64,000 nucleotides of DNA from Dehalococcoidia bacterium (GTDB lineage Bacteria > Chloroflexota > Dehalococcoidia > UBA2979): NCBI GenBank assembly GCA_036013055.1, contig DASCQM010000001.1, positions 39,015 to 103,014 on the forward strand, in the 5' to 3' direction. Both the position numbers and the translations under genes were made by a program. Below the pieces are notes generated by a model. The model was not told the DNA's origin and did not search any database. It was given only the letters and a program-made list of their open reading frames with translations. This document shows, one piece after another, positions 48,704 through 52,087 of this stretch (position 1 is its first letter; every line of letters begins with the position of its first letter).

Positions 48704-49156
48704 CTACGTGCGCTCGGAAGGTTCGCGCTCCCAGAGAGTGTGAAAGCCTTCGCCACCGGTAATCGCGGCCGTGACCTCCAGCCGCTCGGCAGCCACGAGC
48801 TGGCTGAACGCCTGCTCTGACTGCGTGGCCAGGTCGACCCCGCCCAGCGCGACGAGGCGTGTCTCGATCCGCGACCAGATACCGGCATCGCGCATCGCCT
48901 GCGCCGGACGCGGCCAGCTGAAGACGGTGATCTGTTCCGGAAGCTGCATGTTCGGTCGCAGCTTCTGCAGCGAACGGTAGCGCTCCTCCGCCGACGAGAC
49001 GCGCGGCACGATGCGGATCATCGGCGGGTCGCCCTCGGCGGTGCGGTTGTCGACGAGCAGCCGTCGCTCGACGCGGTCGAAACGCACGATGAACACCTCC
49101 GCGTCATCGATGACGCGGCGGATATCATCCATGTCGATCCCGAAATCAGAGTCCAT
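48704..49156 (-). CDS. Hypothetical protein (150 aa)
   Basis: Protein-like ORF from MDSDFGID with high-GC3 codon use; TACAAT lies 9 nt upstream. Confidence 0.7.
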   Translation of the reverse strand: MDSDFGIDMDDIRRVIDDAEVFIVRFDRVERRLLVDNRTAEGDPPMIRIVPRVSSAEERYRSLQKLRPNMQLPEQITVFSWPRPAQAMRDAGIWSRIETRLVALGGVDLATQSEQAFSQLVAAERLEVTAAITGGEGFHTLWEREPSERT

Positions 49157-49212
49157 ATGACGAAGATTGTAGTGACCGTCGTGCCCGGGAGGCAACGCCT
49201 CGCGCGCCCCGG

Positions 49213-50037
49213 CTAGTGCGGCGCGGGCGCCTGGTATGTGCGATCGAGGTACGGAATGTGCACCAGTCCGGCGGCCTGCAGCCCCATCACGATCAGCACC
49301 GCCCCACCGACACGCGTCATCGTGTCGAGGTGCTGCTGCAGGAGGTTGCCAACGAGCCCGACCGAGGCACCAAGGATTGCGAAGACGAGCGTGAACCCGA
49401 TCACGAAGGCGACGGCGTGCATGAAGACACGTCGGCGGTCCGCCTGCGTGTCGCCGGTCCCATTCATCGCCTCCCCCGCGAGGTTCGCGAGATAGACCGG
49501 CACCAGCGGCAGCACGCACGGCGAGAGGAAGGAGACGATACCCCCGAAGAAGGCGATCGCCGGACCCGCGAGCCCATCAACGCCGGAGCTCAAGCCTTCC
49601 TCGGCGGACGCGGTCTGACCGAAGAAGAAGCCGAAGGACTGGAAGTAGCGATTGAGCTGCGAGAACTCGCCGAGCAACATCAGCGTACCGACGACGATGA
49701 ACAGCGCACCCGCACCAATCATCAACTTCGACATGTGTGGCTGAATCTGCCGCAGGCGAGGTGAAATCCAGCCGAAGAACGCGCCGAACGCGAGGAACCA
49801 GGCACCGAGCCCCAGCGAGTACGCGACAAGCAGCAGCGCGCCCTGGTAGGCGTTGCCCGACGTCGCGGCCAGCGTCAGCACGACGCCGAGAATTGGGCCG
49901 ATACACGGCGACCAGGCGATTGAGAACGCCGAGCCGATCGCGAACGAGCGCGGGTAGCCGCTACCAAGCGCGCCGCGAACGCCTGCGAAGCGCTTCGCCG
50001 CCTGCTGGTCTGGTGCCGGGGTCGCTGTGGTCGCCAT
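49213..50037 (-). CDS. ccdA: CcdA / DsbD-beta family membrane electron transporter, circularly permuted
   Basis: The WSPCIGPILG half precedes the SFLSPCVLPLVPVYL half, the reverse of canonical order. Alternative start at 50061. Confidence 0.88.
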   Translation of the reverse strand: MATTATPAPDQQAAKRFAGVRGALGSGYPRSFAIGSAFSIAWSPCIGPILGVVLTLAATSGNAYQGALLLVAYSLGLGAWFLAFGAFFGWISPRLRQIQPHMSKLMIGAGALFIVVGTLMLLGEFSQLNRYFQSFGFFFGQTASAEEGLSSGVDGLAGPAIAFFGGIVSFLSPCVLPLVPVYLANLAGEAMNGTGDTQADRRRVFMHAVAFVIGFTLVFAILGASVGLVGNLLQQHLDTMTRVGGAVLIVMGLQAAGLVHIPYLDRTYQAPAPH

Positions 50038-50153
50038 GCCATCTCTCTCGCGCACGTCCATTGTCGTACCGCTCGACCCCCTCGCGGGTGAGCGCACTCA
50101 CGCAGCGATGTTATGAATCTGTGAAATCTGGCGCGGTCATCACTGCGGCCCGG

Positions 50154-50354
50154 TCACTCCTCGATGCCCAGCAGGCGCCTGCGCGCCGCGTCGTACTGTT
50201 CCTTCGTGCGCGCCTCGCGGTTGAGCAGCCCCTTGAGCACGGGAGGTTCGATGCGCTCGCCATCAAGGAAGAAGGCGTGCAACCGGTCCAATTGCGTCTG
50301 CCACGCCTTCCAGGCCTCGCTGTATGCCTTGCGTGCGTCGCTGTCACTCACCAT
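50154..50354 (-). CDS. Small helical hypothetical protein (66 aa)
   Basis: Protein-like ORF with TAGACT 6 nt upstream of the ATG. Confidence 0.65.
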   Translation of the reverse strand: MVSDSDARKAYSEAWKAWQTQLDRLHAFFLDGERIEPPVLKGLLNREARTKEQYDAARRRLLGIEE

Positions 50355-50410: not shown

Positions 50411-52087
50411 TCAGGCGCCCTCACGCATTGCCGCCTTCTGCTCGCGATAGTCGGCGTAGCCGCCCGCGAATTCGGTGAGCTCTCCGTCGTCGAGTTCCAC
50501 GACGCGGTCCACGACGCGGTCGACGACGCGATCGAGGAAGTAGCGGTCGTGCGAGATCACGAAGACCGTGCCCGCGTAGTCATCGAGTGCTTGCTCAAGC
50601 AACTCGGCGGACGGGATGTCGAGGTTGTTCGTTGGCTCATCGAGCATCAGCAGGTTCGCGCCCATCAGCATCAGCTTCGCCATCTGCAGGCGGCTCTTCT
50701 CGCCGCCGCTCAACGTCGAGATCTGCTTCCCCGCGAGTTGATGGTCGAAGAGGAATCCCCCGAGAAACCCGTAGGCCTCGCCCTCCGACATCGACTTCAT
50801 ACGCCGCACCTCATCGACCGGCGTGCTGTCGAACCGCAGCGTCTCGTGCTCCTGCGCGTAGTAGCCGACAGAGATGCTCGGGCCGAGCTTCGACTGGCCC
50901 TCGGTCGGCTCCTCTTCGCCGAGGACCGTGTGGAACAGCACGGACTTGCCGGACCCGTTCGGCCCGACCAGCCCGACGCGCTCGCCGGCGGAGATCAGCA
51001 GATCGAGCCCGCTCAGCACCGCCGTCTGATCGAACCGTTTGTGCAGCCCGATCAACTCCAGCACCTTGCGGCTGCCACGCTCCGACGTGAGCCGCAGCCC
51101 CATCTGCCGGCGCTTGATCACCGGCGCCGGAGTGCGATCCATCTTCTCAAGCCGCTTCTCCATGCTCTTCCAGCGGCGCACCATCTTCACGTTCTGCCCG
51201 CTGGTGCTGAAGTCCTTCATCCGCTGAATCGACTGCTCAAGACGCGCGGCCTCGCGATTCTCGAGGACATGGTCCTTCTGCTGCTTGAGGAGCTGCGACT
51301 GCTTCTCGTGCGCGTACTCGGAGTAGTTCCCCGCGAAGACCGTGAGTTGTGGGCGGCCCGGGTGGAGGCCGCTCAAGTCCAGCTCGGCGATCGAGTCGAC
51401 GAGCACATCGAGCAGGTAGCGGTCGTGCGAGATGATCACGACCGCGCCGGGGTGTCGTGAGATCACGCGCTCGAGCCGCGCCTTGCTCGCGAGATCGAGG
51501 TGGTTGTCCGGCTCGTCGAGCAGCAGGATGCTCGGTTGCGTGACCAGGACGCGCGCCAGCCCGACCATCTTGCGTTGCCCGCCACTGAGCGCCCCGGTCG
51601 GCACGTCGAAGAGATCGGGACCGACGCCGAGATCACGCAACGCGCTCTCGGCGCGGCCACGGAAGTTCAGGCCACCGCGACGCTCGAAGTCGTCGAGCAG
51701 TCGCGTGTGCGCCTCCATCACCTCGGCCAGTCACTCCTCGTCTTCGTAGACCGCGGGCTGCCCCATGCTCGCCTCGTGCCGCTGTAGCTCCGCCTCGATT
51801 GCGGCGAGTTCATCGTCGGCGGCCAGTACCTCGTCGAGAGCGGTGCGGTCAGCGTCGAACTCCGGCGTCTGCGCGAGATAGCCGATCGTGACGTCGCGCG
51901 AGCGGATCACGGACCCACCGTCCGTCTCTTCCTCGCCGATGATCAGCTTCAGCAGCGTCGACTTCCCCGCCCCGTTCGGGCCGACGAGACCGATCACCTC
52001 GTCATCCTGGATCTCCCACGAGACGCCCTGAAGCACCGGCCGGGCGCCGAAGTATTTGGTGACATTCGAGAGCGCGAGAGAAATCAC
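50411..52087 (-). pseudogene. ABC-F family ATPase interrupted by one in-frame TGA (51731-51733)
   Basis: ORFs 51731..52087 and 50411..51721 share one frame (...VYEDEE*LAEVMEAH...). Together they give both ABC domains. Confidence 0.8.

Follow-up and report, generated by a model that had tools for sequence, protein, structure and literature searches.

Within the window (i.e., the whole 64,000-nucleotide stretch of Dehalococcoidia DNA that was analyzed), an intact open reading frame (ORF) on the minus strand (49213..50037; stop codon, 49213-49215) encodes a CcdA-type protein in which the two halves of the chain occur in swapped order. Translated from the ATG at 50037, the protein has 274 amino acids (aa). 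Alternative starts are an ATG at 50061 and a GTG at 50097, as far as which the frame stays open; an identical protein in the database (P0002) has a length of 282 aa, which matches a start at the ATG at 50061. The neighbors of the gene are a 66-aa ORF (50154..50354, minus strand) and an ORF of approximately 150 aa (48704..49156, minus strand), neither of which has a Pfam family, together with a threonine aldolase gene and an ABC-F type ATPase gene (50411..52087, minus strand). The ABC-F gene is interrupted by an in-frame TGA (51731..51733) that separates a 118-aa N-terminal ORF (51731..52087) from a 436-aa ORF in the same frame (50411..51721); it could be a pseudogene, or the interruption could represent a sequencing error or a read-through site. 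The parts of the permuted ccdA gene are as follows.

49213..50037, minus strand: permuted ccdA gene (ORF; identity to P0002; DsbD_TM match of 69.5 bits)
49948..50037, minus strand: N-terminal tail, residues 1 to 30 (4 Lys/Arg; predicted to be cytoplasmic), equivalent to the latter part of what was the TM3-TM4 loop
49669..49947, minus strand: first half, residues 31 to 123, equivalent to canonical TM4-TM5-TM6 (residues 31 to 133 align to 5vkv 113 to 211)
49903..49905, minus strand: Cys45 in the TM4-type motif Ser-Pro-Cys-x-Gly-Pro (here Ser-Pro-Cys-Ile-Gly-Pro), the first motif in the chain
49564..49668, minus strand: junction/linker, residues 124 to 158 (predicted to be outside the cell; 1 Lys/Arg, 4 Asp/Glu), in which the former C-terminal tail is followed by new residues and then by the former N-terminal tail
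49258..49563, minus strand: second half, residues 159 to 260, equivalent to canonical TM1-TM2-TM3 (residues 161 to 258 align to 5vkv 7 to 93)
49516..49518, minus strand: Cys174 in the TM1-type motif Ser-Pro-Cys-x-Leu-Pro (here Ser-Pro-Cys-Val-Leu-Pro), the second motif in the chain
49213..49257, minus strand: C-terminal tail, residues 261 to 274 (predicted to be cytoplasmic), equivalent to the initial part of what was the TM3-TM4 loop, and stop codon

The protein belongs to the DsbD_TM family of Pfam (PF02683; 69.5 bits; cutoff, 27.1), which it matched in two stretches, and it also matched DsbD_2 (41.8 bits; cutoff, 24.9). The NCBIfam DsbD and TsoB models gave weak matches that were far under their cutoffs. 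DsbD proper was ruled out on the basis of the length of the protein (i.e., 274 aa), its score with the DsbD model NF001419 (43.5 bits; cutoff, 330), which matched the core alone, and the lack of alpha and gamma domains.

A phmmer search against solved structures identified the CcdA of T. thermophilus (5vkv_A; whole-sequence E value, 1.7e-26) as a match in two out-of-order pieces. Residues 161 to 258 aligned to positions 7 to 93 of 5vkv_A (i-E value, 8.6e-14), while residues 31 to 133 aligned to positions 113 to 211 (i-E value, 2.1e-11). The second solved CcdA (2n4x) matched weakly in the same search and in the same swapped order. We then applied a doubling test, in which each protein was joined to itself and searched with a canonical-order HMM (240 positions) constructed from 106 canonical sequences (86 database representatives and 20 Dehalococcoidia genes). 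The two halves in their native order scored 146 and 118 bits, and the self-concatenated protein gave a single domain that spanned HMM positions 8 to 236 of 240 with 261 bits across the joint. The circular permutation of CcdA is thus confirmed, with a signal far beyond chance. These alignments support a cut point in the TM3-TM4 loop and a new joint from TM6 to TM1, with both catalytic cysteines retained. The protein thus departs from the collinear TM1-to-TM6 order and, according to the topology predicted below, from the external position of the two termini; this deviation is what defines the permuted variant.

The original prediction, made from the sequence of the window, had described a C-terminal-type half followed by a linker and an N-terminal-type half, and the stretches that it quoted were found in that order. 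The two out-of-order partial matches that it expected from a DsbD/CcdA profile were seen with 5vkv_A and in the two stretches of DsbD_TM, and its reading of the gene as a natural circular permutation agrees with the 5vkv_A alignment, the doubling test, and the invariant motifs described below. As it had also stated, both Pro-Cys cysteines are kept in an intact ORF (Cys45 and Cys174 in the 274-aa frame). A new linker is present as proposed, but not with the proposed length of 17 residues: its real span is approximately residues 124 to 158, from the last helix of the first half to the first helix of the second, and the alignment to the 5VKV C-terminal tail is retained in residues 124 to 133. The tails of the protein keep the conserved flanks of the TM3-TM4 loop and the start of the linker keeps the 5VKV tail, as a clean cut-and-rejoin event predicts. 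For annotation, the consequence is that profile searches of permuted CcdA return two out-of-order partial matches; in databases, the permuted proteins are labeled as ordinary CcdA ("CcdA"), as TauE/SafE family members, or as hypothetical proteins.

Hydropathy and an AF2 model both revealed six hydrophobic stretches or long helices, with one repeat of 5VKV in each half. CcdA has been described as six helices in two inverted repeats, and an elevator-like movement of TM1 and TM4 within a scaffold made up of the remaining four has been proposed (PMC7329351). For the permuted protein, we infer the opposite orientation of the two three-helix repeats from the distribution of Lys and Arg. Across 66 sequences, the N-terminal tail, the 91-104 loop, the 185-204 loop, and the C-terminal tail contain a mean of 11.8 Lys+Arg, compared with 2.3 in the 61-65 loop, the linker, and the 233-243 loop. 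Given the positive-inside rule, these levels predict that both termini are cytoplasmic and that the linker lies outside, and each helix would thereby keep its canonical CcdA orientation. In canonical CcdA, both termini are outside the cytoplasm. The N- and C-terminal domains of DsbD (i.e., alpha and gamma) are periplasmic according to PMC3322552, consistent with this orientation. The proposal that the permutation moved the termini to the opposite side of the membrane therefore fits the predicted topology.

The AF2 model, generated from the 66-sequence alignment, had a pLDDT of 78.9 and a pTM of 0.70; it placed two short helices in the linker (residues 125 to 138 and 140 to 149), and residues 8 to 21 had pLDDT values below 50. 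When the model was compared with 48,161 representative chains using VIA-align, 5vkv ranked first by a narrow margin (Z, 8.7; rmsd, 4.5 Å; 202/224 residues aligned), with a Z score in the range that the tool flags as common among helical bundles; the next, unrelated rows had Z scores of 8.2 and 7.2. A Foldseek search of the PDB gave no match at an E value of ≤0.001 (5vkv ranked 50th; E value, 1.8), which says little since the relatives in the PDB are NMR structures only and differ in chain order.

The swapped order is widely conserved. The best 120 matches in a word-indexed protein search were all collinear with the permuted CcdA (63 to 100% identity; 88 to 100% query coverage; 243 to 299 aa), the C-type motif preceded the N-type motif in all 120, and none of these 120 relatives carried a fused domain. 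Of 19 loci from the genome collection, 18 were from Dehalococcoidia or Chloroflexota metagenome-assembled genomes and were collinear (58 to 84% identity); the nineteenth, from Melghirimyces, had the canonical order. The order to which the window belongs consists of one family with 21 genera, and a match to the permuted ccdA was found in 90 of its 99 genomes and in all 21 genera, including 48/48 of the high-quality genomes (≥90% complete, ≤5% contaminated). Among the matches listed in this order, nearly every one covered residues ~25 to 272 in a single piece. Additional canonical-order matches were observed in one genome of the order (G231; 70% complete). Fixation of the permuted form thus extends across an entire order of marine Dehalococcoidia. 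The survey of relatives that the original prediction had called for returned collinear proteins, and the gene, which had been treated as a singular oddity, is the standard form of that order.

In an alignment of 66 permuted sequences (37 to 92% identical to the query), Cys45, Cys174, and their flanking Pro and Gly residues, which make up the two Pro-Cys motifs, were invariant in 66/66 sequences. The invariant residues comprise W42, P44, C45, G47, and P48 in the first half and S172, P173, C174, P177, and P180 in the second half. Nearly invariant positions were found in the N-terminal tail and at the start of the first half (G27, Y28, R30, and S31), in the linker (F125, L128, N129, F132, G136, F137, T142, E146, and G155), and in the C-terminal tail (P262, L264, R266, T267, Y268, and Q269).

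The two small flanking ORFs are conserved in position as well: the 66-aa ORF lies upstream of the permuted ccdA in 18/18 Dehalococcoidia loci, and the ORF of ~150 aa lies downstream in all 16 loci with enough flanking sequence. We rejected a functional linkage of these ORFs to ccdA, since synteny extends over the whole block around the gene (i.e., also to the threonine aldolase, DUF3108, SNase, and ABC ATPase genes), their homologs in families f20 and f2 are not beside the permuted ccdA, and in a genome of another family (G170) they adjoin each other without ccdA between them. The two small ORFs thus seem to be an older gene pair within which ccdA is now located.

The genome that contains the window (2.32 Mb; 21 contigs) is 93.7% complete and 7.7% contaminated. 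In a profile search, the permuted CcdA was its single PF02683 match, and no match to ResB (system II) was found. Two Cytochrom_C_asm genes are located on contig C20 and belong to a complete Ccm operon of system I. This operon starts with a gene for a thioredoxin-like protein (G000:C20; L024:14442-14999) and continues with CcmE, CcmF, and CcmH, two ORFs of no assigned family, and then CcmA, CcmB, and CcmC; CtaA, a UbiA-family (CtaB-like) gene, and COX1 come next. The two unassigned ORFs, between CcmH and CcmA (L024:10082-11391, minus strand, i.e., G000:C20), encode 343 and 93 aa and have no Pfam family. The earlier remark that no thioredoxin or cytochrome c maturation genes adjoin the permuted ccdA is correct for its neighborhood; the Ccm operon lies on another contig. 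The thioredoxin-like protein of the operon combines a hydrophobic anchor segment at its N terminus with a Trp-Cys-Gly-Pro-Cys site, as expected of CcmG.

Since the permuted ccdA is the sole DsbD-family gene found, the genome encodes a Ccm operon with a CcmG-like protein, and CcdA is described as reducing CcmG homologs (PMC3322552), we infer that the permuted CcdA is the working reductant supplier for cytochrome c maturation. At the above levels of completeness and contamination, the assembly may lack a further gene of the DsbD family, and an origin of the ccm contig in another organism is conceivable. The protein is probably the functional CcdA of its host. We consider it very likely that it represents a functional CcdA-type thiol-disulfide electron transporter of the DsbD family with a circularly permuted chain (i.e., TM4-5-6, an outside linker of ~35 residues, and TM1-2-3). 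In the mechanism that we propose, the six helices would pack as in canonical CcdA and lie the same way round in the membrane, with the termini alone differing in that they would now be cytoplasmic, within the old TM3-TM4 loop. Electrons would be taken from cytoplasmic thioredoxin and passed via Cys45 and Cys174 to the CcmG-like thioredoxin that the Ccm operon encodes and that is anchored in the membrane; its reduction would keep the cysteines of apocytochrome c reduced.

The protein may instead be functional with a client other than cytochrome c maturation (e.g., a peroxiredoxin, a methionine sulfoxide reductase, or another thioredoxin-like protein outside the cytoplasm), or its partner specificity may have been changed by the outer linker and the cytoplasmic termini. 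The lack of ccm and thioredoxin genes beside the permuted ccdA would be compatible with such a role, as would the 35-residue outer linker, which is well conserved within the order and could form a new surface, and the three permuted paralogs kept by genome G069, which hint at several clients. We regard this as unlikely, however, given that the gene is the sole one of the DsbD family found in the genome, that the CcmG-like thioredoxin of the Ccm operon is of a type that depends on CcdA/DsbD in known systems (according to PMC3322552), and that the degree of conservation in the helices surrounding the two cysteines equals that in canonical CcdA. Supply of reductant to the CcmG-like protein thus remains our preferred reading.

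We surveyed the class using 201 sampled genomes, of which 134 had a match. Single collinear matches, indicative of the half-swapped form seen in the window, were found in families f1 (own genome and 9/9), f2 (3/3), and f20 (2/2). A second pattern, in which the match covered approximately residues 20 to 195 (i.e., TM4-6, the linker, and TM1), was found in families f21 (9/9) and f23 (9/9) and in one f33 genome; representative sequences and eight extracted genes revealed the order TM2-3-4-5-6 followed by TM1. The remaining genomes, among the matches listed, gave two pieces in the canonical order. Where source names were given for the permuted representatives, they were Chloroflexi or Dehalococcoidia. 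The two permuted forms share the TM6-linker-TM1 junction and predicted cytoplasmic termini, and the second form, like the half-swapped one, is the single CcdA-like match in most of its genomes. The forms differ in that the second is cut in the TM1-TM2 loop, while the half-swapped form is cut in the TM3-TM4 loop, and in that the second occurs in the sister families f21, f23, and f33 and is absent from the window's order. Two proteins of the second form (P0158 and P0180; 340 to 360 aa) carry an extra hydrophobic insert of ~100 residues between the equivalents of TM3 and TM4. Genome G069, which belongs to the same family as the window, encodes three half-swapped paralogs with 66, 58, and 45% identity to the query (G069:C1:563813-566636 and G069:C1:2165065-2165838; see also G209), two of which are ~1.3 kb apart.

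The relationships among these forms were examined in a quick IQ-TREE tree (101 rows by 232 columns), for which the permuted proteins were rotated to the canonical order and only HMM match columns were used, with the linker and termini excluded. The rows comprised 30 half-swapped sequences (18 of ~126 from two protein searches and 12 extracted genes), 15 sequences of the second form, and 56 canonical sequences (20 from Dehalococcoidia and the first 36 of the 86 representatives). Canonical sequences were interspersed among the permuted ones, which split into three groups for the half-swapped form and into three or more for the second form; the 45% copy of G069 clustered with the sequences of family f20. 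Constraining all permuted rows together cost 64.6 log-likelihood units (AU test, p = 0.022), and constraining the half-swapped rows together cost 56.6 units (p = 0.047). A single origin is thus weakly rejected by the tree. Since the AU tests were run after the tree was seen, the tree search and the alignment were short, and the p-values lie close to the significance threshold, a repeated origin of the permuted CcdA (or its reversion) is suggested rather than established. A bolder scenario, to which we give less than even weight, is that CcdA was permuted repeatedly and independently within one class, by half-swapping at least three times and by transfer of TM1 to the end at least twice, and replaced the canonical gene each time. 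The linkers of different permuted clades share only the canonical tail motif and a composition rich in Gly, Ser, Ala, and Glu, and linker homology was therefore dropped as evidence on origin, the shared signal being too small to argue for or against a single event.

The most likely route to the permuted gene would be a tandem duplication and fusion of ccdA followed by the loss of the outer halves, a route that is possible because the canonical termini both lie on the outer side of the membrane. A split of ccdA within the TM3-TM4 loop with refusion in the reverse order, or an ancient independent fusion of two half-size genes, would lead to the same arrangement. The tandem 12-helix intermediate was not found in any of the best 120 longer relatives (481 to 881 aa), in a search that is itself weak evidence (coverage, ≤45%) and in which the motifs were in the canonical order in 116 proteins and limited to the N-type motif in 4. 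This null result would favor fission or half-genes, and half-size ancestors are conceivable in that the halves of CcdA are described as homologous inverted repeats (PMC7329351). On the other hand, each half shares 45 to 55% identity with its counterpart in canonical CcdA of Dehalococcoidia, and in the tree the permuted forms are nested among these canonical sequences, both of which make an ancient separate fusion unlikely. The linker also keeps the canonical C-terminal tail motif, as a head-to-tail fusion of full genes predicts. Overall, we consider fission or a fusion of half-genes improbable, and favor duplication and fusion.

The integrity of the gene was assessed using independent assemblies. 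Logan contigs from two runs, X1 (study P1) and X2 (study P2), cover positions 49100 to 50200 (1,101 bases) with one mismatch and no indel or joint, and a contig of run X6 (study P3) covers 49100 to 49685, including the junction (49564 to 49668), with zero differences; one of these runs may be the source of the window DNA. Coverage of the junction, a check that had been proposed at the outset, was thus provided by contigs of three studies with zero or one mismatch and no joints. Many unrelated metagenome contigs matched only a segment of ~40 bases at the TM1 Pro-Cys motif (49489..49531), so that depth rose sharply there and loose ends appeared in each of the four runs; we read this spike as DNA-level conservation of the motif in the ccdA genes of other organisms. 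No RNA data sets were present among the 20 runs listed. The dN/dS ratios were 0.13 and 0.14 in comparisons with the two closest loci; at dS values of ~0.8 to 0.9, more distant pairs are saturated. The permuted ccdA is an intact, conserved gene under purifying selection. An assembly artifact, or a decaying remnant of a tandem ccdA duplication, might be suspected given the metagenomic origin of the genome, its 7.7% contamination, and the fragmented copies in a few genomes of the order (G262, G275, and G279), but can be practically dismissed in light of the bridged junction, the 18 collinear loci in other assemblies, the presence of the permuted form in 90/99 genomes of the order, the low dN/dS ratios, and the invariant catalytic motifs.

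The permuted CcdA has in common with canonical CcdA (5VKV) six helices, two Pro-Cys motifs, the alignment of each half with its matching half, and the same expected role (i.e., the supply of reductant to a CcmG-like thioredoxin). It differs in the order of its helices (TM4-5-6 and then TM1-2-3 instead of TM1 to TM6), in the new outer linker of ~35 residues that joins the old termini, and in the cut cytoplasmic TM3-TM4 loop, where its own termini are predicted to lie in the cytoplasm. With E. coli DsbD (NF001419) and ScsB, it shares the membrane core and two membrane-embedded cysteines, as these proteins are described in PMC3322552. It lacks the periplasmic alpha and gamma domains and helices 7 and 8 of DsbD; with cytoplasmic termini, DsbD-style periplasmic fusions at the ends of the chain would need extra helices.

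Full-text literature searches, judged from their result listings, returned no description of a permuted CcdA or DsbD, although a remark in the CcdA structure paper or the main review is possible. The permuted CcdA is thus real, conserved, and apparently undescribed. To our knowledge, natural circular permutations of multihelix membrane proteins have rarely been documented. Here, such a permutation is fixed and under purifying selection in what is apparently the only CcdA of its host. Nature has thereby set up an experiment on the elevator movement proposed for CcdA: the TM3-TM4 connection has been cut, and TM6 has been tied to TM1. If the permuted CcdA works, then the movement does not need those connections. 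If the repeated origins are true, the elevator fold of CcdA would be indifferent to helix connectivity, and selection would favor cytoplasmic termini (e.g., for insertion without translocation of an N-terminal tail). Together with the canonical form, the two permuted forms provide three connectivities of one small fold that can be compared with respect to insertion, stability, and partner recognition. The chief value of the permuted CcdA appears to be as a natural test of helix connectivity in a small elevator-type membrane protein.
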